A DNA stretch of 64,000 nt from Patescibacteria group bacterium (GCA_041661405.1 JBAZUL010000003.1:20707-84706), one strand, 5' to 3'. Positions 1,667 through 63,142 are shown, numbered from the stretch's first letter. Program-made: numbers and translations. Notes: a model not told the origin generated them from the sequence alone.

Positions 1667-2974
1667 TTATTTTTTTTCTTGCCGTAATATAAATATTATC
1701 TGGCGGCCAAAATATTTTGAAAAAAAAGAAAACCAGGCGTTATGCGGAACGTTAAGGCGCCTGCGCGAAATATAATAATAGCTGGGGTAATGCTTTACTA
1801 TGGAAAATCCTGCTGACTTAAATTCTTTTTTCATATCATCAATATTTCTAATATTTACCCATAAGGGGTGATAAGTCTTTTTTTTACGGCTATAATGGGA
1901 AAAGTTAGTGTAAGTAATTAAAATTTTTGTGTCCTTATTTGAAAGATTGCTATTGAGATATCTCAATAGTTCCCTTACCCGATCAATAGATAAGTACTCA
2001 ATGACTCCCGAAATAACGATTACATTAAAAATCTCGTTAAAAGGAAAGTTTTTAAAATTATCTTTTTCCAAGTCAAATACGGCGTAACGGCCAAAGACTA
2101 TTTTCTGCATAAACACATCAACGCCCGCGTACTTATAATTGCTGTTTTTCAGCATTTCTCCAAGCGAAGCCGGGCCGCACCCTATATCAATGATTGAACC
2201 GCCAGAACCGCCTTTAATAATCTCACCGTATATCTCATTTATTCTTTTATGCGGCTTTTTGTACTTTCGAGATTCGGCTGTCCAGTACTTATCCAATCCG
2301 ACGATAAACGGCTTCTGGAAATATGCCGCACCTCCGGATCCGAAAACCAGCTCGGCATCAATATTATTAATTCCCATAAATTCATCTACCGCCTTTTGGC
2401 ACCCTGGCCAGGCACGATAATCGTCAATGATAACATATCCGCCTGGAACGACATTTTCGTATAAAGTGTCTAGACAAAACTTTGTAGATTCGTACCAATC
2501 GCAATCAAGGCGCAAAAGTCCGATATCCCCAACCGACTGTTTGTGGGCGGGCAAAGTTTCGTTAAACCACCCGGGTACTATCTTTACCTTGTTTTTTTTA
2601 TTTCCCGTAACTTTTAATAATACCTCTTCAACATCCTCAATTTTGCACTCACCTTTATCTCTTTTATACTGCTTATGTGCTAAAATACCATCAGCGACAG
2701 AAGGCTCAGGCAAACCGGCGAAAGAATCAAAAAGCCACAAATTCCTTCTTTCGCCGTATTTATTAATAATCTCGGCCATTACGGCCGCCGCGCCGCCTTT
2801 CCAAACCCCGCATTCCACAAAATTTCCGGACATACCCTGTTTTTCAATTTTTTCGACGAGCTCATACAGTTCATAGAGCCTATCATGGCCGACCATAGTA
2901 TAACTCTCAACTTTTTTAAAAAGCAACCATTGCCTTAGATGCTTTATTTTTTTTATCGCGTCATTTAAAGTCAT
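1667..2974 (-). CDS. fusion of a TylF/macrocin-O-methyltransferase-like domain with a second class I SAM methyltransferase domain
   Basis: The N half has FVECGVWKGGAAAVMAEI, LWLFDSFAGLPEP, LRLDCDWYES and GGYVIIDDY, a TylF-family pattern. The C half has SAM motif I, IIDIGCGPASLG. The start lies 1 nt after the upstream stop. Confidence 0.8.
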   Translation of the reverse strand: MTLNDAIKKIKHLRQWLLFKKVESYTMVGHDRLYELYELVEKIEKQGMSGNFVECGVWKGGAAAVMAEIINKYGERRNLWLFDSFAGLPEPSVADGILAHKQYKRDKGECKIEDVEEVLLKVTGNKKNKVKIVPGWFNETLPAHKQSVGDIGLLRLDCDWYESTKFCLDTLYENVVPGGYVIIDDYRAWPGCQKAVDEFMGINNIDAELVFGSGGAAYFQKPFIVGLDKYWTAESRKYKKPHKRINEIYGEIIKGGSGGSIIDIGCGPASLGEMLKNSNYKYAGVDVFMQKIVFGRYAVFDLEKDNFKNFPFNEIFNVIVISGVIEYLSIDRVRELLRYLNSNLSNKDTKILITYTNFSHYSRKKKTYHPLWVNIRNIDDMKKEFKSAGFSIVKHYPSYYYISRRRLNVPHNAWFSFFSKYFGRQIIFILRQEKK

Positions 2975-2975
2975 A

Positions 2976-4271
2976 TTAATTAATATTTATAATATTCAGA
3001 ATTACCTCAATATTTTTTTTTGATAACATAATAGCCTTTGACCTGGCAGACAAAAAGGTTAGTTTGGGAGTATTTATTAAATTTTCAAAAGCATCTCTAA
3101 GGATTTCTGGGGAAAAACGGCGGATGTCTAGAATCAATTGGCTTAAATCTAAATCTTTAAAAATACCCGCGGTTTTCGGTTCGTAGCCGATAGCCATAAC
3201 TGACACGCCGCCAAGCAAAGCAAAAATAGACGAATGGAGCCTAGTGGCGATAAAATAATCCATTTTACTATACAACCGCAATAGGTCGTCCATTTCCAGC
3301 TCATCCTCTATTATTCTGACTCGCGCCTTAGCGTTATCGTCCAAGGCATTATAAATTTTTTTTGAAATAATTCTATCATCCTCGCTGAATGATGGTCCGA
3401 CTGATTGCGGCATTAAATAAAACCGGAATCCCCGAAGAGTATACTCGTTAATAAACGATATTAGAGAGCTTATGTAGACTTGAAAATCTTTTTTCTTTGA
3501 CCATGACCTGACAGTGAGACCGACACAAATGTGGCCATTTTTTTTATCTTCAATGGCTCCATAAAATGCTTTATTCTTGCCGCTCCCTTCATCGCTCATT
3601 TTAAGTAAAAATGCCGAATCGCCCGTTAAAATAACGTTTTTATAGAGACTAAGTTGATTTTTTAAAAAACTCATTGAATCCGTCTCTCTGACGGTAATCA
3701 GCGGGAACCGGCGCATAGCGCGACGCATAATAAATTTTGAGTATAAATTATTTATGGGGCCAAAAGACTGCGCCGATAGAATAACATTCTTTTTGAACTT
3801 AGCGCCGACAATAAGCTGATGTAAATGGCTCATAATTCCTACGGGTAAAATATTGATCCGGCACTCGGGCTCCCGAAAAAAACTACCTCCTTTTGAGATA
3901 ATGACATCGCACTTCTTGTAAGCATCCAATGTTTTCAGCGCCTCGCCCGAACCGCTATAATACCAATAGGCTAATCGGGGAAAATTTAGAAGCGCTAAAG
4001 AAATATAATATTTACCAAAAAAGAATATAGCTCCTGCCTTATTGGTCAAAGAATAAAACCATTTGCCTTGATTAAACTTAGGTAAATCAAGAAGAGGCAA
4101 AAAAAATTCAACCCCCGATGACTCCCACCATCCGCGATCATTTATATTGCGTCCGATGACACTAAAACGGAATCTTCTATTTACCGCCTTCAATCCTCCG
4201 ATTAATCCCAGAACTATCCCTAAGTCGCCTTTATTTTTAATAGAATGAAAGTTTGTAATCAAAATATTCAT
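2976..4271 (-). CDS. polysaccharide pyruvyl transferase (CsaB/WcaK-like)
   Basis: The ORF track gives 2976..4319. I prefer the ATG at 4271 (MNILITNFHSIKNKGDLGIV), which removes a 34-nt overlap with the upstream gene. The motifs ISKGGSFF and ATRLHSSIFALLGGVSVMAIGYEPK resemble the pyruvyl transferase family. Confidence 0.75.
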   Translation of the reverse strand: MNILITNFHSIKNKGDLGIVLGLIGGLKAVNRRFRFSVIGRNINDRGWWESSGVEFFLPLLDLPKFNQGKWFYSLTNKAGAIFFFGKYYISLALLNFPRLAYWYYSGSGEALKTLDAYKKCDVIISKGGSFFREPECRINILPVGIMSHLHQLIVGAKFKKNVILSAQSFGPINNLYSKFIMRRAMRRFPLITVRETDSMSFLKNQLSLYKNVILTGDSAFLLKMSDEGSGKNKAFYGAIEDKKNGHICVGLTVRSWSKKKDFQVYISSLISFINEYTLRGFRFYLMPQSVGPSFSEDDRIISKKIYNALDDNAKARVRIIEDELEMDDLLRLYSKMDYFIATRLHSSIFALLGGVSVMAIGYEPKTAGIFKDLDLSQLILDIRRFSPEILRDAFENLINTPKLTFLSARSKAIMLSKKNIEVILNIININ

Positions 4272-4285
4272 AAACAATAAAATGG

Positions 4286-5407
4286 TTAATTTATTAAAGA
4301 AACAAGTTGCCAGACGCACTTTTCTATGGTATATAATTTGCCCGTCTCTTTTGCCTTACTCTTTTGACTTTGAAAGTCTGCCGGATGTTTAATTACAAAT
4401 GTAATTATTTTTGCGAGCTGTTCCGCATTTCTAGTTTTAAAAGTGAAACCATTATAACCGTCTCTAACTAAAGCTGTCATGCCGGGAATTTCGGAAACTA
4501 CAACAATCTTTCCAAGCATCAATGCCTCAAGCAAAGATAGGCTAAGCCCCTCCCAAAGGGAAGGCATAACATAGATGTCGGCGCAATTTACTATTTCCTT
4601 AGCGTCATGCCTAGCTCCCAGAAAATGGACATGATCAGCATACGGACTCAATGCCGCCTGTTTTTTCAAGAACCGGGAATACTCATTCGTGTCGGAACCG
4701 CAAATTAAAAAATGAATTCTCGGATTTTCATCAACAACCTTCCCGACGGCGGCAATCAGCGTTTCATATCCCTTTTGAGGATTAACATTACCATTTGATA
4801 CTGCTAATATATCTTTTTCACTAAACCCCAACTTGCCTCTCACATCGTCCGCGGCCGGTATATTTTTAATAAAATCCTCGGAAATACCGTTCTGAACTAC
4901 TACAATTTTATGCTTAGAAATTCCTTTTTCTATTAAATAATCTTTTACTTCTTCGGAAACCGCGACTATTTTATGGGTCAGAAAGGAGAGCAAGCGATCA
5001 ATAAAAAAATGCTTAAAGCTCTTTTCCTTTCCATAGGAATTATGTTCATAGGCAATAATTTTATCAAAACGAAAGGCCAAAAGGCAAGCCAAGCGAACCA
5101 AAGTATTTGCCAAAAATAAATGTGAAATTATCGCCTCGTACTTCTTCCCCTTAATTAATTTAGCAATCAGCCATATACCATGAAGCGAAAACCCTTTAGC
5201 GTCAATATTTATCAGCTTCCCCTGGGATAATTTCAAATCTTCATAAAAGCCTTGCTTGAGGCTTGGCAATATAACAAGCACATCCACTGCGTACCCCAAC
5301 TCCTCTAGGCAGTTTGCCTGGTCAACGACCAATCTTTCGGCTCCCCCGAAAGATAGGTTATTTATGACTACAAGAATCTTTTTTGGCTGTTTACTTCGCA
5401 TAATCAA
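4286..5407 (-). CDS. glycosyltransferase family 4
   Basis: 373 aa. N-terminal KILVVINNLSFGGAERLVVD and C-terminal PSLWEGLSLSLLEALMLGKIVVVSEIPG are classic GT4 motifs. Confidence 0.88.
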   Translation of the reverse strand: MIMRSKQPKKILVVINNLSFGGAERLVVDQANCLEELGYAVDVLVILPSLKQGFYEDLKLSQGKLINIDAKGFSLHGIWLIAKLIKGKKYEAIISHLFLANTLVRLACLLAFRFDKIIAYEHNSYGKEKSFKHFFIDRLLSFLTHKIVAVSEEVKDYLIEKGISKHKIVVVQNGISEDFIKNIPAADDVRGKLGFSEKDILAVSNGNVNPQKGYETLIAAVGKVVDENPRIHFLICGSDTNEYSRFLKKQAALSPYADHVHFLGARHDAKEIVNCADIYVMPSLWEGLSLSLLEALMLGKIVVVSEIPGMTALVRDGYNGFTFKTRNAEQLAKIITFVIKHPADFQSQKSKAKETGKLYTIEKCVWQLVSLIN

Positions 5408-48207: not shown

Positions 48208-49209
48208 TTACTCCGCGCAACCGGCATCGGCCGAGTTTCCGGCGACTGTCCCTTCGCCAAATCCCGGAGCCGGGCTCTCGGACGACAACTTTTCTTTGCA
48301 CTCATCCGGAGCGTTATTAAAGCCGGCGCAAATCGTCGCCATCAAATCAGCCTGGCTCCGGCCGGACTGGGCTTCAGTGCCGTTCACTATTAGGGTTGGC
48401 GAACCGCCTACCCCGTATTTCGCGTTATCAGCCGCGTAAACCCCGAAAGAAGGATAACTGCCTTTAAAATCAGTCTTAGCGTTAAACTTTTTCATAACTT
48501 CAAATTGCTGGTCAGTTTCGCTCGCGCAGGAAGAAAGCTTAGCCTTGTCAATTCCGGTTTCCGTCAAACAGGCTTCGCCATTTCCTTCTTTTAAGAAGCA
48601 TTTTAAATAGGTTAGGAGTTTTGTCGGTTCGTTTTTGTCTATGCAATACTGGTTTAATTCTTCTTTAAGCTCTTTTTCACCGTGCATGGCGTAGTCGCAA
48701 AACTTCAATTTAAAATCAATTTTATTGCCGAGCTTTTCCACGACCGGGATTATGCCTTTTTCAATCTGCGTGCCGTAAGGGCAATGGCTCATGACAAAAA
48801 GTTCAACCGCCGGCTTGTCGCTTTTGGCTATGTCAGCCGCGGGGGGTTGGCTGGCGGCATCCTCATTCCCGGTATTATCAGCGGCCGCCTGAGCGCCTTC
48901 AACGCTTAAGGCCTGCGGGAAAAAAGTCGTCCCGTCTTTTGTAATGTAGGAATCAACTTTCTGCCCTTCGCCTAGGTCTACCGATAGTTTATAGAGCCCG
49001 TTTTCCTCTATAATAGATTCAACCGTGGCTTTCCGGCCTTGCATCAGATTTTCGTTAATATAAGTTTCCGCTTTGGCTTTGGCTTCTTCGGGTTTTAATA
49101 TTTTCGCTTTGGAAGATTTTAAGTCCGCTAAGGAACAGCCGGTTAAAACCAAAGCTAAAGCCATTGATATTCCTCCGATTTTCGCCCATCTAAGCATGAT
49201 TGTTTTCAT
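48208..49209 (-). CDS. thioredoxin-fold (DsbA/GILT-like) lipoprotein
   Basis: 333 aa with a lipobox, ALALVLTGC. There is an N-terminal PepSY-like module, then FVMSHCPYGTQ with further conserved-looking Cys (KFCDYAMHGEKE, YLKCF, EACL, TICAGF..DECK). The functional assignment is tentative. Confidence 0.55.
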   Translation of the reverse strand: MKTIMLRWAKIGGISMALALVLTGCSLADLKSSKAKILKPEEAKAKAETYINENLMQGRKATVESIIEENGLYKLSVDLGEGQKVDSYITKDGTTFFPQALSVEGAQAAADNTGNEDAASQPPAADIAKSDKPAVELFVMSHCPYGTQIEKGIIPVVEKLGNKIDFKLKFCDYAMHGEKELKEELNQYCIDKNEPTKLLTYLKCFLKEGNGEACLTETGIDKAKLSSCASETDQQFEVMKKFNAKTDFKGSYPSFGVYAADNAKYGVGGSPTLIVNGTEAQSGRSQADLMATICAGFNNAPDECKEKLSSESPAPGFGEGTVAGNSADAGCAE

Positions 49210-49492: not shown

Positions 49493-52087
49493 TCAAACCC
49501 AAGTCGTGCTCGCTACCTTGTCTCCCTTTTCCTTAAACCGCATTAAGCGCACGCCTTGCGTGTCGCGCCCGAGCTTTGGCACTGTTTTAAAAGGCAAACG
49601 GATAACCTGGCCGCTCGCGGCGATTATAATCATGTCCTTGTCGCTCATCTTTTCCTTATCAACGATAAAAGCGTTGACAATGTCTCCGGTTTTAGCCGTA
49701 ACTTTGGCCGTCCGGATCCCTGATCCGCCCCGGCCCTGGATTTTAAAGAGGTCTAAGGGGGAAACTTTTCCAAACCCGTTTTCCATGACAACAAGCGCCA
49801 TGCTCTTTTTTAATTTTTCCTTATCATTTTTTATTACTCCCATGCCGACGACAAGGTCGCCTTTTTTAAGGCGGATACCTCTTACTCCGGCCGCTCCCCG
49901 GCCCATATCCCGAACATCGGTTTCCTTAAACCGGATGGACTGGCCTTTGGCGGTTATGAGCTGGATTTCATCCTTGCCGCCGGTCGGTTTGGCCCAGATC
50001 AGCCGGTCATCCGCGTTAATCTTTATGGCAATGAGGCCGGAACGCCGGACATTGGCAAAAGCCGAAAGCTCCACCTTTTTAACCAATCCCAGCTCAGTGG
50101 CGAAAAAAAGATATTTGCTCGCGGTAATTTTGTTTAAAGGCAAAATTGAAGTAACGCTCTCCGACCCTTCCAGCTGGAGGAAATTGACTATTGCCTGCCC
50201 TTTGGACGTGCGGGCTGATTGCGGTATTTCGTAGGCTTTGAGCTGGAACGCCCGCCCCTTAGTCGTAAAGAACAATAGATCGGAATGGGTATTGGTCGTA
50301 AACATGAATTCCACCATATCCTCTTCTTTAGTCGTAAGGCCGATTACGCCTTTGCCTCCCCGAGCCTGGGATTTAAAAGTGTCGGGCGGCAGGCGCTTTA
50401 TATAGCCGTCGCGGGTCATCATGACCATAGTTTCTTCGTCCGGTACAAGGTCTTCCATTTTAAATTCCTTGATATCCCCGGCAACAATGGCGGTTCTTCT
50501 CTCGTCCCGGTAATTTTCGTTCAGCTCTTTCAGCCCGTCTTTGATAACGCCGCGAATCTTGTTTTTTGATTTTAAAAGTTCTTCCAGCTCTTTTATGAGC
50601 TTCATCTTATCCTTTAACTCGGTTTCAATTTTCAGCTGTTCCAGGTTAGCGAGCGTCGCCAGCTTCATTTCCAAGATGGCAATGGCCTGCCGTTCGGTCA
50701 GCTTGAATTTTTTTATGAGGTTAACCTTGGCATCTTCGCGATCTTTTGATTTTTTTATGGTCGCGATCACCTCGTCAATTTTCGCCAGGGCAATCATTAA
50801 ACCTTCTAAAATATGAGCCCGGTCTTTGGCTCTCCGGAGTTCAAATTCCGTCCGGCGCCGGATTACAACTTCTCGGTGTTTTATATATTCTTCCAGGATC
50901 ATTTTCAGGTTCAAAACTTTCGGCTGGATGCCGTCCACTAACGCGAGCATGTTGACGTGGAAAGTTTCCTGAAGCTGGGTCATTTTGTAAAGGTTGTTTA
51001 AGATCTTTTTCGGGTAAGCGTCTTTTTTCAGTTCAATGACAACGCGGACGCCGTCCTTGTCGGATTCATCGCGCAGATCCCTGATGCCTTCAATTTTTTT
51101 GTCTTTTACCAGGTCGGCGATTTTTTCCACTAGCGTGGCTTTGTTAAGCTGAAAAGGAATTTCCGTGATTATAATCCTGAAGCTCCCGCCTTTGGTTTCA
51201 ACGATTTCAGCTCGGCCGCGCATGACGATTCCGCCTTTGCCGGTCGCGTAAGCTTGCAGGATATCCCGCCGGTTGTAAATAATTCCGCCGGTCGGAAAAT
51301 CCGGACCTTTGATAAAAACCATCAGATCCTCAACCGTAGCGTCGGGGTTGTCTATTAAATGGGTTATGCCGTCAATCAGTTCGCCTAGGTTATGCGGCGG
51401 GATGTTGGTAGCCATGCCGACGGCGATGCCCATGGCGCCGTTCATAAGAAGATTCGGCAGTTTAGCCGGAAGAACTCTAGGCTCTTTTTGCGAGCCGTCG
51501 TAGTTTGGAACAAAATCCACCGTATCTTTGTCTATGTCAAAAAGTATTTCTTCGGCGATTTTCGCGAGCTTAGCTTCGGTATATCTCATAGCCGCCGCTC
51601 CATCGCCGTCCATGGAACCGAAATTTCCTTGGCCTTTAATAAGCATGTAGCGCAGGGAAAAATCCTGGGCCATCCGAACCATGGAATCATAAACCGCCGT
51701 ATCGCCGTGCGGATGGTATTTGCCGAGCACTTCTCCGACGACGGTGGCCGATTTTCTGAACTTGGCGTTGGCGCGGAGCCCTAAATTCCACATGGCGTAC
51801 AATATGCGCCGATGCACCGGTTTTAAACCGTCCCGGACATCCGGCAGGGCGCGGGCGACGATAACGGTCATGGCGTAATCTAGGTAGGATTTTTCCATTT
51901 CCCGGACGATAGAGTGCGGTTCAACCATTCCGTATGCTGTTTCCATCTTTTTTTCAATAACCAAAGAAGCGGCTGGTTCAGCGCCGCTCTCTTTTTCAGC
52001 GGCGCCGTTCTCCTCTTTTGCCGCCGGAACTTTGGCTATCTCTTCTTCGTCTTTTTTCTTCTTATTTTTTTTTATATCCTTTGCCAT
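49493..52087 (-). CDS. gyrA: DNA gyrase subunit A
   Basis: 864 aa with the active-site region [14 protein letters not shown] and [15 protein letters not shown]. The C-terminal beta-pinwheel repeats are present. There is a K/E-rich N-terminal extension of about 45 aa. Confidence 0.98.
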
Positions 52088-58401: not shown

Positions 58402-61400
58402 CTATCTCTTGGCTCCGCTATAGGCAATCGCTCTCACAATGTCCCAAGCCATAGCGCTCTTTGGCGCGTAGCCGTAGATGAATTTAAAAGATTTGATGGC
58501 TTGTTTTTCCGAATTCAAATTCCTGTTGGCTGGTCTTAGGCCATAGGAGATTACGGCAATGGCGTTATTGTCGTGAGTATTGGTTTTGTCCGGTTCTCTC
58601 AGATAGATTTTCTTAAACGCCGCCTCGGCGTTCTTCTCAGTCACAGTGTTCTTCTGTCCCGGCCATCTGCCATTGGCGATTTTAATGATATCGTTCCAAT
58701 CGGTTTCGGTTGCCGGGTTTCGGCCAAAGGCCGATTTGAATGAGGCGATGACGCCGGAGCGTTCGCCCGAGCCTAGTATTTTTGTTGTCCCGGTTCCGGC
58801 GGTGATGAAACTGGTTAGAGCGTTTTTGGCTTTTGACGCTATAGCTTTGGCTTCGCTCTGGAGGGTTTCCAGGGCCGGAGTTGCGGTTTTCGGGGTTTCA
58901 CTATTGCTGTTTTTGTTATCATCGCTTCCCTCGCTGGCATTGGCCGCGGTTCCGGAGCTGTCGCCAATATCAGCGCCAGAGCTGTCATCACTGCTTCCAT
59001 CTCCTGTTTCATTATCATCATCGCTTCCGCTGTTCGCGCCAACGGACTGGTTTTGCTGGTTAAAAAGATAGCTGGGAACGGTATTGCAGTCCCGGGTGTA
59101 GGTCAGGGTATTGGAGTTAGTCGTGTTGCCGTTATTATCTAATGCCGCGATATACCAGGTATGGGCGCCGCAGGAGAAGTTTTGGGTTGGGTGTCGGGAG
59201 GTGGCGGTATTCGCGATATTGTCGGTATCCAGGATATTGTCTATGTAGAGCCGATATTTTTCTATGCCGGATTCAGTGTCGGATGAGGCGTTCCAGGAGA
59301 GCGTTGGCCGGGCCTCGGAGTTTACCGTATTATCCGCCGGGGAGGAGAGGGTGAATGAGGAGGGAGCGGCAGTATCTTTTTCCAATGAGAACGTATGGGT
59401 GGAATAGCCGCCCGAGTAGGTGAACTGGATAATACCTGAGGAGTCGGAGAGGCAGGTCAGGTTAGTTCCGTTGCCATAGCTCGTGGAACAAGTAGTATCG
59501 CCATAGCCGGTGATGGCCGTCGTAGTGGCAATATTGTCTATTTTAAATGTGTAGTAGGTACTGGCGAGGAGATCGCCTATTGTGTGGATGGTTGATGTGG
59601 CATGGGTCTGGCCAACGGCAGTGGCGCTAGAGGTCGCAATCCAGGATTTATTCTTGGCTCCGGTGGTTGACCATTCGGTGATGGAGATGTCCATGTAGGC
59701 CGAGGTTGAGGCCGTGTAGTACCCGCCTCCGGCGGGTACTACCGAGAAATTGGAAGTGGCGATAGTTTCAGTGGTGGTAGAGGCGGTTAATGCCCTGTAT
59801 TTGCCGTTAGAGTAGATCCTTATGGAGCCGGTTTTAGGGATGGCGTTCGTTCCCACAGTATAGGGCGGCTGGTACTCATACGCTCCGATGTCGGGGAGAC
59901 CGTAGATCGGGAAACCAGCGTAGTCGGTAGCTAGAGAGACGTCGGTTCCGGCGTCGATGGCGGGACTGTTGTAGGCCAGTTGGAAGTCGGCGGCGGCGGA
60001 GTAGTCGCCATTAGCATTTGTGAAAACAGGATTAGTCACAAAACCATTACTTTCACCGGATGCGCTTTGCCACGCAGTAAAATTTGCGCTCGCTACTCCA
60101 TTCCACATCCACCAAGCACCATCAACCGCATAATTATTATAATCAGCCACTGCAGTCATGCCCGCCGAAAATCTCACATGCCTAGTAGATGGCGTAGATC
60201 CAAAAATATTGTTTTTTATGGTAAAATTATGTCCCGTATAATTTCCTACATAAATACCATTTCCAGCTGTATATCCATAAAAAACATTATCATAAAAAAT
60301 ACCCGCGATACCTCCGGCGACAGTATTGTTATAAATAGAAGAGTTGAAACCATTAATGACATTATTATAAACTGTAACAGTTAAAGTCTGTGAAGTACCC
60401 AAATCAATGCCGTATAGATGATTGATTGTTCCCCCTGACATATAATTTCTATACACTAACCATGCTCCGGTTGGATAAGTATTAGCCCCAATATCCATAC
60501 CTCTCCTCGTATTTGTTATTATATTTCCATATATTTCACATCCTGATCCTCCAAAATCCCCCGCATATATTCCATTTGTATCTCCAGAATCATCTAGTGT
60601 GATAGTATTATTGTAAATCTTAACCGCACTGGAATTTACGCCGCTTACAGCTATACCCGAGTTAGTAGTACTGCCTCTTGTATTAGCCACTTTATTGATA
60701 GTATTTTCGTAAACATTGCCGTTATCTATTCCTTCATTAGTACCTGCGTTTGGTTCAAAATCGACGCCGGCATGTCCGCCACTGATTGTGTTACCAAAAA
60801 TATCCATGCCATCAGCATCAACAACAGCGATTCCTTGCCTGTCGATACTGTCCGCTCCTCCTCCAATTACATTATTACTAATAACAATATCTTCTGGTGT
60901 TTTTTCCGTTGCTATTTCCCAACTCACAAATATTCCATCTCCTTGAGTACCAATTTGTTGAGACTCAATCAAGTTTATTATATTGTTATCAATCGTTACA
61001 TTAGTAGCACCTCTAACGCAAGCGCCATAGCCAGTACCTGATTGAATAGTGTTATTATTTATATTTATGTAATCAGAACCAGGAGTAGCATAAATACCTC
61101 CTCCGTTAGTTGACCCGCTTGCCTCACCTTGAAAATATTCTATTACCAAACCATCTATCGTTATATAATCTTTGTCGTTAGTGCTTATCCCCATTCTTTG
61201 AGCGATTTCAAACGTATTTCCTGAAGGATCACTGCCGAGATATAAATTTCCGCCAGAATATTTCCATTCGTCTGCGCCAAGAGAACCGATTGTTCCTTTA
61301 AGCAAAACTGTACTTCCACGCATAACCCAAAAAGGTTCAGTAGCGTATGCCTTGTTGTACTCCCCATTTCCGTCCGGACCTGTCCAACCAGTGCCATTAT

Positions 61401-61842
61401 CCTGCATGCTGCCGTAAATCTTCGGATCATCCCCGCTCCCAAACGCTCCGAACGTAATTACACTACCGTCCGTCCCCGAAGCCGGAACCGTCAACTGCTC
61501 TCTCCAAGTTTGTCCTTTTCTAAAATAAACAAAGTCGCCAGGCTGAAGAGCAGCAAAAGCATTGATGTCGGCAATGGTTTTGAAGACAGAATCTGTACCG
61601 GTGTCGGTGGCGAAAGTAGTGTGGTCATAGGTGGTAAAATCCGGCGTGGCGCTCCCGACATTAGTGTCAGTCACTGAGGAGTCTACATAATATGTCGCCG
61701 CCTCCGCCCTCCCCGCCCCAAAAACAAAAAAACTTCCCAAAAAAATTGCGAAGAAAAAGACAAAATTAAAGAATCTGAAATTTTTAACTTTGAGATTTGA
61801 TTTTTGATTTTCTGTTAATCCCCCCCCCTGAGCCTGCCTCAT
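58402..61842 (-). CDS. giant secreted right-handed beta-helix protein with FN3-like domain and a repeated C-terminal module
   Basis: The ORF track gives 58402..61929. I prefer ATG 61842 (GAGG 7 nt upstream), giving 1146 aa. The signal peptide is KNFRFFNFVFFFAIFLGSFFVFGAGRAEA/ATYYVDSS. The N-terminal cap (FKTIADINAFAALQPGDFVYFRKGQTWREQLTV) and many PbH1-like turns (NNTI, NNII, GNTI, NNVI) indicate a beta-helix. The FN3-like region is PSSFTLSSPADNTV...PTLSWNASSD...YRLYIDN. An acidic S/D/G linker follows. The C-terminal double repeat ends in WDIVRAIAYSGAKR. Confidence 0.85.
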   Translation of the reverse strand: MRQAQGGGLTENQKSNLKVKNFRFFNFVFFFAIFLGSFFVFGAGRAEAATYYVDSSVTDTNVGSATPDFTTYDHTTFATDTGTDSVFKTIADINAFAALQPGDFVYFRKGQTWREQLTVPASGTDGSVITFGAFGSGDDPKIYGSMQDNGTGWTGPDGNGEYNKAYATEPFWVMRGSTVLLKGTIGSLGADEWKYSGGNLYLGSDPSGNTFEIAQRMGISTNDKDYITIDGLVIEYFQGEASGSTNGGGIYATPGSDYININNNTIQSGTGYGACVRGATNVTIDNNIINLIESQQIGTQGDGIFVSWEIATEKTPEDIVISNNVIGGGADSIDRQGIAVVDADGMDIFGNTISGGHAGVDFEPNAGTNEGIDNGNVYENTINKVANTRGSTTNSGIAVSGVNSSAVKIYNNTITLDDSGDTNGIYAGDFGGSGCEIYGNIITNTRRGMDIGANTYPTGAWLVYRNYMSGGTINHLYGIDLGTSQTLTVTVYNNVINGFNSSIYNNTVAGGIAGIFYDNVFYGYTAGNGIYVGNYTGHNFTIKNNIFGSTPSTRHVRFSAGMTAVADYNNYAVDGAWWMWNGVASANFTAWQSASGESNGFVTNPVFTNANGDYSAAADFQLAYNSPAIDAGTDVSLATDYAGFPIYGLPDIGAYEYQPPYTVGTNAIPKTGSIRIYSNGKYRALTASTTTETIATSNFSVVPAGGGYYTASTSAYMDISITEWSTTGAKNKSWIATSSATAVGQTHATSTIHTIGDLLASTYYTFKIDNIATTTAITGYGDTTCSTSYGNGTNLTCLSDSSGIIQFTYSGGYSTHTFSLEKDTAAPSSFTLSSPADNTVNSEARPTLSWNASSDTESGIEKYRLYIDNILDTDNIANTATSRHPTQNFSCGAHTWYIAALDNNGNTTNSNTLTYTRDCNTVPSYLFNQQNQSVGANSGSDDDNETGDGSSDDSSGADIGDSSGTAANASEGSDDNKNSNSETPKTATPALETLQSEAKAIASKAKNALTSFITAGTGTTKILGSGERSGVIASFKSAFGRNPATETDWNDIIKIANGRWPGQKNTVTEKNAEAAFKKIYLREPDKTNTHDNNAIAVISYGLRPANRNLNSEKQAIKSFKFIYGYAPKSAMAWDIVRAIAYSGAKR

Positions 61843-61877
61843 CGACTCGCCTCGCTGAGTCGAAGCGGGCAGGCAAG
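61821..61877 (-). repeat. GC-rich nested hairpin element, copy D, containing the SD and ATG of the giant gene
   Basis: Outer stem GCCTGCC/GGCAGGC (61832..61838 and 61868..61874). Inner stem TCGACTC/GAGTCGA (61842..61848 and 61857..61863). GAGG lies in the inner loop (61850..61853) and the ATG at 61840..61842. GGCAGGCTCA is shared with copy A. Confidence 0.7.
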
Positions 61878-62036
61878 CTATTTCAGTTTTTGTATATTCT
61901 CTTCTGTTTAGAGACATTCGTTGGAACATGTCTTTGGTTTTAGTTTTCCCGTTCCTTTCTTGTCTTATCTTCCAGCCAAAGGCGCGGGATTGGTTTATGT
62001 ATTTTAAAACTTTCTGGCTTGCTTGGTTCTTGAGTA

Positions 62037-62071
62037 TATTATAGCCGATTATTTCTTCTTTTTCGACAACA
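62037..62071 (-). repeat. 35-bp repeat (copy 1) spanning the last 7 codons, the stop and 12 downstream nt of the RhuM-like gene; contains TATAAT
   Basis: TATTATAGCCGATTATTTCTTCTTTTTCGACAACA is 32/35 identical to 63108..63142. The minus strand reads ...GAAGAAATAATCGGCTATAATA. Confidence 0.85.
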
Positions 62072-63050
62072 GCAATTTTTTCACTTCCCTGTCAAAATCG
62101 GAAATGTAATTTTTATCTTGCTTTTTGCGATATTTTTCAAACTCCGCTCCGGCTTTTTCTTCCGCCTCTTTGGCGCTGATTATTCCGGCGTTGGCTAGCA
62201 ACTTTTTCTCGCTTAATTTCAGAAATTCGTCTAGCTTGGATATCCAGTCTCGCATAGTCATCAGCCGCTCATTGGTAGCCTGAAGTTCCGCGAAATCAAG
62301 ATAAAGCGAGACGATTAAGTTCAGCTGTTTAATTTCTTTTTCCGACAAATAATTTTTGGCAATTTTTATGTCATGAGCGGTAATATAATTTCCCTTAAAA
62401 CTTGTCAGCCCCATCAGCGGCTTTTTGCTGTCGGCTCGTTTCACGATTATCTCGGCCGCCGTGTGCCCATGCACGGCATAATGCATCTTATTTTGCACCG
62501 TGGCGAAAAATTGTTTGGTGTTTTCCGTATCTTTTTTATAATCAACGCTAGTCGCGTAGATATCCGTCACTTTTTGATAAAAGTTTCGCTCGCTGGAACG
62601 GATATCGCGAATTCGCTGTAAAAGTTCCTGGAAATAACGCGCCCGTTCGCCGCCTTGTTTCAGCCGTTCGTCATCCAAAGTAAACCCCTTGATAATATAT
62701 TCCTTTAACCTCTGCGTCGCCCAAATCCGGAACTGGGTGCCTCGCAAAGAATTTATCCGATAACCGACGGAAATAATTGCATCAAGGTTATATAGTTTGA
62801 CTGGGCGGTTTACCGCTCTAACTCCCTCTTTTTGAACTACCGAGGATTCCTCGGATGTTCGATTTTCTTCTAATTCTCTTTCTATGTAAATATTCTTCAG
62901 GTGCAAGGCGACATTATCAATACTGCAATCAAAAAGCTCCGCCATCTGTTTTTGCGTCAGCCACACTGTTTCATGATCCAATTTCACTTCAACCCGGGTC
63001 TTGCCGTCGTCGGTAGTATAAATTATAATTTTATTGCTTTCTTTTTTCAT
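62049..63050 (-). CDS. rhuM: RhuM-family protein
   Basis: 333 aa. IIIYTTDDGKTRVEVKLDHETVWLTQKQMAELF...NVALHLKNIY, YNLDAIISVGYRINSLRGTQFRIWATQRLKEYIIKGF and SSERNFYQKVTDIYATSVDY fit my recollection of the RhuM family pattern. Confidence 0.8.
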   Translation of the reverse strand: MKKESNKIIIYTTDDGKTRVEVKLDHETVWLTQKQMAELFDCSIDNVALHLKNIYIERELEENRTSEESSVVQKEGVRAVNRPVKLYNLDAIISVGYRINSLRGTQFRIWATQRLKEYIIKGFTLDDERLKQGGERARYFQELLQRIRDIRSSERNFYQKVTDIYATSVDYKKDTENTKQFFATVQNKMHYAVHGHTAAEIIVKRADSKKPLMGLTSFKGNYITAHDIKIAKNYLSEKEIKQLNLIVSLYLDFAELQATNERLMTMRDWISKLDEFLKLSEKKLLANAGIISAKEAEEKAGAEFEKYRKKQDKNYISDFDREVKKLLLSKKKK

Positions 63051-63107: not shown

Positions 63108-63142
63108 TATTATAGCCAATTATTTCTTCTTCTTCAACAACA
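63108..63142 (-). repeat. 35-bp repeat (copy 2) at the 3' end of the DinD/Bro-N-like gene; TTGAAG-N17-TATAAT promoter-like
   Basis: TATTATAGCCAATTATTTCTTCTTCTTCAACAACA. The minus strand reads TTGAAG aagaagaaataattggc TATAAT, about 60 nt upstream of the RhuM-like ATG. Confidence 0.85.

Follow-up and report, generated by a model that had tools for sequence, protein, structure and literature searches.

A translated G9 tract near the start of a gene for a secreted beta-helix protein as a candidate phase-variation switch in a Patescibacteria group bacterium

The 64-kb stretch of Patescibacteria DNA analysed here (hereafter the window) carries on its minus strand a long open reading frame, at positions 58402–61929, which Pfam, NCBIfam and the predicted fold assign to a secreted right-handed beta-helix/choice-of-anchor-Q protein. 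Immediately upstream, on the same strand, lies a RhuM-family gene (62049–63050; PF13310, E = 3e-113), and the beta-helix gene itself occupies a variable slot upstream of ftsK. The remainder of the window is ordinary chromosome, with ftsK, gyrA, ftsH, S1, metG, ATP synthase, groEL and a glycan-biosynthesis cluster; neither MutS nor MutL was found among the genes of these 64 kb, and no tRNA or tmRNA was found anywhere in the window. The JGI/IMG and NCBI entries for the beta-helix protein derive from the same 98,781-nt contig, and the identical protein at NCBI, accession MFA6106409.1, bears the title 'MAG: right-handed parallel beta-helix repeat-containing protein [Patescibacteria group bacterium]'.

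Depending on which of three start codons is used, the product is 1175 (ATG 61929), 1171 (ATG 61917) or 1146 (ATG 61842) amino acids long. It matches PF13229 (Beta_helix) at 41.6 bits against a cutoff of 25.9 and NF041518 (the NCBIfam choice-of-anchor Q domain) at 35.7 bits against a cutoff of 25, and is thus a right-handed parallel beta-helix repeat protein with a choice-of-anchor Q domain. Translation, homologue conservation and the structural model together place a signal peptide at residues 1–48 as counted from ATG 61842 (61699–61842, minus strand), in which an n-region (MRQAQGGGLTENQKSNLKVKNFR) and a hydrophobic core (FFNFVFFFAIFLGSFFVFGAG) are followed by AEA|ATYYVD as cleavage motif. About 50 homologues share the A-x-A|ATYYVD junction, and the domain that is 50–70% identical among them opens with ATYYVD, directly after the hydrophobic segment and A-x-A. 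Judged from sequence, this combination marks a Sec signal peptide, with cleavage predicted before ATYYVD. The original prediction, which spoke of a giant 1146-aa secreted beta-helix protein, was right about the signal peptide, the beta-helix and the length from ATG 61842, but 'giant' overstates a protein of 1146–1175 aa.

The AlphaFold model of the protein has a mean pLDDT of 66, rising above 90 over most of residues 50–300, and predicts a helix at residues 22–41, which corresponds to the hydrophobic core, and disorder at residues 1–9. The nearest PDB folds recovered with this model by Foldseek are beta-helix glycosidases, polysaccharide lyases and phage tailspike depolymerases; a PDB search with the protein sequence returned no match. 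From its signal peptide, domains and fold, the product would be classed as a secreted, glycan-active-enzyme-like beta-helix and as a putative surface protein.

Reading of the minus strand and a scan of all homopolymers place a run of nine G residues (C9 on the plus strand) at 61820–61828, within the 5' end of this open reading frame. The coding strand runs GCGAGGCGAGTCG ATG AGG CAG GCT CAG GGG GGG GGA TTA ACA GAA AAT, such that the run takes in the third base of codon 5, all of codons 6 and 7 and the first two bases of codon 8 as counted from ATG 61842, encodes Gly-Gly-Gly (caG GGG GGG GGa), and begins 14 nt beyond the A of that ATG. It falls within the non-conserved n-region of the signal peptide. 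Position, spacing and codon reading are all as originally described.

Whether the tract is translated depends on where translation begins. The three candidate starts (ATG 61929, 61917 and 61842) are in frame with one another and all lie upstream of the tract; no in-frame ATG, GTG or TTG occurs between the tract and the hydrophobic core, and the first start-type codon past the tract is a TTG within the core itself (...AIF-L-GSF...). The tract must therefore be translated, as had been claimed for ATG 61842, and this holds whichever of the three ATGs is the actual start. The public annotations differ on the point: JGI places the start at 61917 (1171 aa), while NCBI PGAP chose an internal methionine, Met 203, giving a 973-aa product that begins MRGSTVLL. 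The latter annotation supports a reading in which translation starts downstream, at Met 203 or at some non-canonical codon, and the G run belongs to the 5' leader; the sequence following the tract (ATTAACAG...) also looks much like the AT-rich leaders that other genes of the window have. Initiation at Met 203, however, would delete both the signal peptide and the conserved N-terminal domain, and this annotation is therefore wrong, while the 50–70% identity of that domain among the homologues indicates that the region downstream of the tract is coding. The n-regions of the homologues, moreover, align just past the tract, and their starts lie at or upstream of its position. With the lack of usable start codons before the core, we regard an untranslated tract as highly improbable.

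The choice among the three ATGs is complicated by a GC-rich imperfect hairpin predicted by RNA folding at 61832–61874 on the minus strand (GCCUGCC..UCGACUC-loop-GAGUCGA..GGCAGGC). A GAGG motif lies in its loop, the inner stem has the A of ATG 61842 as its final base, and the hairpin ends 3 nt from the G9 run. The region folds at -31.9 kcal/mol over 111 nt (z = -2.8). ATG 61842 had been put forward as the best-supported start on account of GAGG 7 nt upstream; that motif is real, but SD-like motifs precede only about 6 of the 49 genes in the window, and this ATG sits inside the hairpin, so that the argument does not hold up for this genome. Its -30 to +30 segment folds at -23.3 kcal/mol, where 47 other genes average -4.8 and go no lower than -12.0, and its upstream PWM score ranks below those of all the other genes. 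For ATG 61929, folding energy and upstream PWM score are both typical. In favour of ATG 61842, the N-termini of three homologues (P0003, P0004 and P0017) align positionally with it (MKTKKTS-TQNQ... in a homologue, MRQAQGGGL-TENQ... in the window).

The hairpin and the G run after it raise the possibility that regulation occurs at the level of RNA, either through sequestration of GAGG and AUG 61842 to control initiation or through transcriptional slippage on the tract yielding mixed-frame mRNAs; expression would then be tuned rather than heritably switched. The strength of the hairpin is atypical in a genome that mostly lacks SD sites and whose start regions are AT-rich (mean 76% A+T in the window) and unstructured, and transcriptional slippage on homopolymers of at least 9 bases is established in other bacteria. 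Set against this, a search of 61500–62300 matched no Rfam family, the hairpin has no copy elsewhere in the window or in the homologue loci and no exact match in viral contigs, and ribosomes starting at ATG 61929 or 61917 would simply read through it. Control by RNA is also compatible with slippage of the DNA. As an explanation of the tract in its own right we consider it improbable. Two further candidate roles for the local sequence were rejected or set aside: the hairpin is not an intrinsic terminator (it is followed by no T-run on either strand and a terminator scan was empty), and a 7-nt inverted repeat flanking 61782–61879 was taken as chance.

What a change in tract length would do to the protein can be computed directly. 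A G10 allele encodes MRQAQGGGINRKSKIKSQS-stop, a peptide of 19 aa, and leaves the body of the gene in a frame that lacks any start codon; a G8 allele encodes MRQAQGGD-stop, 8 aa. Slippage by one base in either direction, which the original prediction expected to switch the protein off, would thus truncate it. The sole start codon in the body frame at G8 or G11 is TTG 61876, which is weak and poorly placed: it borders the hairpin on the 5' side, and its -30 to +30 window folds at -13.2 kcal/mol. Alleles of G6 and G12 keep the frame, and since the n-region sequence is not conserved, such three-base length changes would be tolerated and should be harmless.

These outcomes suggest a simple cycle. 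During replication, slipped-strand mispairing would add or drop one G. At G9, and also at G6 or G12, the upstream ATGs would be in frame, and the protein of 1146–1175 aa would be made and exported (ON); at G10, translation from ATG 61842 would stop after 19 codons (OFF); and at G8 it would stop after 8 codons, with TTG 61876 alone in the body frame, giving an OFF or very low state. The population would then be a reversible mix of cells that make this surface protein (ON) and cells that do not (OFF). That slippage at G9 does toggle the reading frame of the secreted beta-helix protein in this way is our main reading, and we give it a probability of about 0.5. At nine bases the tract exceeds the length of about 7–8 bases or more that suffices for slipping, and it stands in the translated 5' end of the gene; that it slips at a useful rate and has been selected as a switch we infer. 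Other bacteria have genes that are switched off through homopolymers near their 5' ends (PMC2831843, PMC3786947, PMC8355987), and that a G9 run is hypermutable follows from what is already established (e.g. PMC2831843, PMC3786947, PMC8355987). Slippage is a classical mechanism, and a case has been made for its generality among prokaryotes (PMC2831843).

The tract is an outlier in its surroundings. In the window, which has 43.8% G+C, runs of G or C number 843 at length 3, 173 at length 4, 25 at length 5, two at length 6 (C6 at 14749 and G6 at 48841), none at 7 or 8, and one, the tract, at 9; the earlier remark that the window holds no comparable run thus proved accurate, the next longest being 6. 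From base composition alone one would expect 12.6 runs of at least 6 where three are seen, and 0.16 runs of at least 9. Runs of G or C are therefore depleted, and the tract stands well outside the observed decay of run lengths. Of 100 simulations under an order-5 Markov model built from the window, tract included, 3 gave a longest G/C run of at least 9. Homologous and syntenic loci from other Patescibacteria, about 80 kb in all, contain no G/C run longer than 6. Codon choice tells the same story: GGG makes up 16% of the glycine codons in the window and is under-used as the first codon of Gly-Gly pairs (10 compared with 18.9 expected), the pair GGG-GGG occurs in only one of 116 Gly-Gly dipeptides, which is the tract, and 15 of 16 Gly-Gly-Gly tripeptides are interrupted by a run-breaking GGC or GGA, the exception again being the tract. 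The run exceeds what composition or codon usage would give.

An outlier of this kind could also be an error. In that case the real length would mostly be G8 or G10, the gene being a pseudogene or in the OFF state, or the assembly would be chimeric with a junction at the G run. Some sequencing chemistries are indeed error-prone at homopolymers, and the internal start chosen by NCBI (973 aa) hints at trouble in the annotation of the 5' end. But runs of A or T of at least 8 are over-represented in the window (34 compared with 4.1 expected), and the 28 runs of 8–9 that lie inside listed open reading frames interrupt none of them, which argues that the assembly calls homopolymer lengths reliably. 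(The gyrA open reading frame has an A9 run close to its beginning, which was considered as a control for a 9-mer at this position in an essential gene; it was dropped, as gyrA translation probably begins only after the run, at Met 48.) The 1171-aa JGI product reads through the tract, with the JGI and NCBI records representing the same contig. A run of 9 nt should also fall well short of what an assembler, at the k-mer sizes in use, would need to join two contigs. Finally, ATG 61842 lies 9 codons before T-E-N-Q, in line with 7 in homologues P0003 and P0004, so that nothing is missing. An artefact of sequencing or assembly is in our judgement quite improbable.

The main rival to frame switching, next to which the other alternatives are minor, is that the tract is incidental: G9 would have come with, or arisen beside, a lineage-specific insertion of the hairpin, might slip occasionally without being selected, and would decay. 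The rarity data weigh against this view, in that G/C runs are otherwise strongly purged, all other Gly-Gly-Gly tripeptides avoid G runs, and the sole exception sits in the classical position, the translated 5' end of a gene for a secreted surface protein. In favour of it, the tract is a single instance in 64 kb and lies in a signal-peptide n-region that would tolerate any sequence.

Homologues give the incidental reading further support. None of the N-termini of about 50 homologues could be encoded with a G9 or C9 run, and six homologue loci read as DNA contain no G/C run of at least 7; at the place equivalent to the tract, P0003 instead has an A7 run (ATG AAA ACT AAA AAA ACA). Recurrence of the tract with varying length, as might be looked for in a maintained switch, is therefore not seen among the homologues, but as a test this has little force: even the best homologue shares only 46% identity, and the databases searched hold no close or true orthologue of the gene. 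The orthologue comparison suggested in the original prediction thus comes out neutral to slightly negative. Other copies of the locus were sought in several ways. A variable-gap DNA pattern run against genome contigs found no second copy, exact-protein look-ups (the 973-, 1175-, 1146- and 1171-aa products, a paralogue fragment and RhuM) found no other assembly of the locus, and an N-terminal fragment compared with metagenome and genome contigs gave only distant homologues among the matches listed. The protein cluster contains only the window's contig and the paralogue fragment, a partial paralogue (MFA6106493.1) that is 95% identical over 243 aa and lies on a different contig, of 80,372 nt, of the same MAG.

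With FtsK as a synteny anchor, the nearest relatives prove to differ at the slot. In the two whose FtsK is 83% and 76% identical, gene order downstream is kept while unrelated genes lie upstream of ftsK, one of them encoding a 1046-aa LTD/PKD protein; the beta-helix gene is absent from the slot in both, and their loci hold no G/C run longer than 6. The gene is thus part of a flexible, recently rearranged surface-protein region, and the tract is lineage-specific.

Sequence upstream of the gene bears the same marks of rearrangement. A 35-nt direct repeat has its first copy at 62037–62071 and its second at 63108–63142 (91% identity, spacing 1071 nt), and the RhuM gene, for which copies about 70% identical occur in other phyla, is a widely transferred cassette flanked by this repeat. 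Copy 1 covers both the RhuM stop codon and the TATAAT box of a sigma-70-like promoter match (TCGAAA-17-TATAAT; 62038–62066, minus strand). This match, a consensus match only, agrees at 10 of 12 positions; it overlaps RhuM at the 3' end and is a candidate for the promoter that drives the beta-helix gene. The idea that the tract lies in a promoter spacer was rejected, as the scan gave no promoter-like site that overlaps it and there is no start codon downstream of it. Another Patescibacteria contig (L010) carries a RhuM gene 95% identical to that of the window, followed right after the TATAAT box by an unrelated secreted protein, with neither the hairpin nor a G-tract after the RhuM copy. Homology between the two ends just past the TATAAT box, which indicates that the hairpin and G9 lie outside the RhuM cassette. 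In an alignment of 5'-region DNA with three homologues, the hairpin shows up as an insertion that only the window carries. As the tract adjoins this apparently lineage-specific hairpin, the run may be a recent by-product of the insertion. A hairpin segment missing from the three homologues, a tract found in no homologue or relative, and a region recently reworked by the RhuM cassette, the 35-nt repeats and the exchange of genes at the slot all fit an incidental origin, which we hold to be possible rather than probable. Frame switching draws its strength from elsewhere: all that a slipped-strand ON/OFF switch demands at the level of sequence is present. As far as sequence can tell, G9 is a credible but unproven candidate for a homopolymer contingency locus, with the classical anatomy of one located inside an open reading frame.

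Several well-studied systems share parts of this anatomy. The opa genes of Neisseria carry CTCTT repeats in the region that encodes the signal peptide; they form a multigene family in which all copies contain the repeat, and their switching is experimentally established. As in opa, the repeat described here lies in an unconstrained part of the signal peptide, where in-frame changes would be harmless and out-of-frame changes would mean OFF; unlike in opa, where the unit is a pentanucleotide, it is a homopolymer. The closest match in kind is with the poly-G/C genes of Campylobacter jejuni and Neisseria meningitidis (hmbR, hpuA), in which a G/C run within the open reading frame of a surface gene turns expression ON or OFF by changes of +1 or -1 (PMC3786947, PMC8355987, PMC5084427). 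Their tracts, of about 8–13 bases in genes for surface or surface-modifying proteins, are outliers against genome composition, as is G9 here. In those species, however, polymorphism, switching rates and phenotypes have been measured, the loci number dozens per genome, and the tracts recur in orthologues, whereas here there is one tract in 64 kb, known from sequence alone, in a gene with no orthologue and in a non-pathogenic environmental host. The inlA gene of Listeria monocytogenes likewise has a homopolymer in the first codons of a secreted surface protein, and its frameshift product is 8 aa long, as is that of the G8 allele here (PMC2831843). It differs in that the inlA tract is poly-A and its reversion has been measured experimentally (PMC2831843), while in the window A/T tracts are common and G/C tracts nearly absent.

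Within the CPR, the hypervariable PTD-repeat gene of Gracilibacteria offers a parallel, with repeat slippage in a stem-loop-flanked gene for a surface or extracellular protein; its in-frame 9-mer repeats, in contrast, alter the length and sequence of the protein, with no frameshift ON/OFF (PMC6851277). It is the only case of repeat slippage in CPR surface or extracellular proteins that we found (PMC6851277). Diversity-generating retroelements are a known CPR route to variation of surface or ligand-binding proteins within populations, but they work differently, through reverse-transcriptase mutagenesis of a variable region (PMC8144416, PMC10221324). Neither a reverse transcriptase nor a template repeat was noted near the beta-helix gene. 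Full-text search retrieved, among the papers it covered, none linking homopolymer or SSR phase variation to the genomes of Patescibacteria, CPR or Saccharibacteria, in keeping with the earlier statement that homopolymer switches had not been described for CPR-like episymbionts.

Taken one step further, frame switching at this gene would imply that Patescibacteria (CPR) episymbionts use homopolymer slippage: G9 would stochastically switch a secreted, glycan-targeting beta-helix protein encoded in a hyper-variable slot by ftsK, probably for contact with host cells or their envelopes, and slippage would stand beside diversity-generating retroelements as another source of population-level surface heterogeneity in these ultra-small bacteria. 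This wider proposal we offer tentatively, and rate as doubtful for now. In such a scheme, the adjacent hairpin, by burying the internal start, may ensure that expression comes only from ribosomes that begin at an upstream ATG and read through the tract. Should G9 be the only allele that exists, the tract would be a curiosity in a recently rearranged 5' end. If its length variation is real, this would be the first homopolymer contingency locus that we have found described for Patescibacteria/CPR, and G/C tracts in CPR genomes otherwise depleted of G/C runs would provide a simple screen at metagenome scale. It would also reveal bet-hedging, in ultra-small and uncultured bacteria from the environment, over a surface protein that binds or cleaves glycans, with a bearing on host attachment or phage evasion.

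The start of the beta-helix gene (58402-61929, minus strand), whose 5' end carries the nine-G run at 61820-61828 (G9), differs between public annotations: NCBI/PGAP places it at an internal Met, giving a product of 973 aa that thereby lacks both its signal peptide and its conserved N-terminal domain, whereas JGI gives 1171 aa, starting at ATG 61917. Another of the in-frame candidate starts, ATG 61842, is enclosed in a GC-rich, imperfect hairpin (61832-61874, minus strand) that holds GAGG in its loop and ends, at its 3' side, 3 nt ahead of G9. Across the 49 ORFs of the window, start regions average 76% AT and show little structure, and the folding of this hairpin is far stronger than that of the start region of every other window gene. 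It was not found in the 5' regions of the homologues compared, and it has no Rfam match.

A Shine–Dalgarno motif is missing from the upstream regions of the majority of the 49 ORFs. Several window genes have an ATTAAC/TTTAAC-like motif a few bases 5' of the start codon, and ATTAAC also occurs directly 3' of G9. The longest gyrA ORF opens 47 codons 5' of Met 48, the likely true start, and this extension (51946-52087, minus strand) contains an A9 run (52065-52073) that is probably part of the gyrA 5' leader.

Runs of at least eight A or T number 34 in the window, where composition predicts 4.1, an approximately eightfold excess. Nine of them (0.34 expected) fall in two adjoining glycan-modification genes (1667-4319): five in a TylF-like O-methyltransferase gene (1667-2974) and four in a polysaccharide pyruvyl transferase gene (2976-4319). 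These runs might represent additional slippage-prone loci, or may just be a product of richness in AAA and TTT codons.

Directly upstream of the beta-helix gene, the RhuM gene (62049-63050, minus strand) is bracketed, cassette-like, by two copies of a 35-nt direct repeat (62037-62071 and 63108-63142; 91% identical, 1071 nt apart), which span the stop codons of both genes, RhuM and Bro-N, together with a TATAAT box. A 95% identical RhuM gene on another Patescibacteria contig (L010, 1937-2938) carries the same terminal motif, followed by the gene for an unrelated secreted protein; the intergenic DNA separating these two genes contains a (GA)7.5 dinucleotide repeat (L010, 2985-2999).

The slot upstream of ftsK differs among close relatives (L008, 1-497; L009, 5708-10000). 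In one of them it is occupied by small genes and the gene for a 1046-aa LTD/PKD protein, and in the other by an unrelated gene located where the contig ends. Downstream of ftsK, these relatives keep the gene order Lactamase_B_3, gyrA, S1 and ftsH.

Elsewhere in the same MAG, at the end of a different, 80,372-nt contig, lies a partial paralogue (P0055/MFA6106493.1) that shares 94.7% identity with the beta-helix protein across residues 655-897, as numbered on the 1175-aa product. The near-identity of this partial copy and its position at a contig end suggest that this surface-protein family is recently duplicated or recombining, breaking the assembly.
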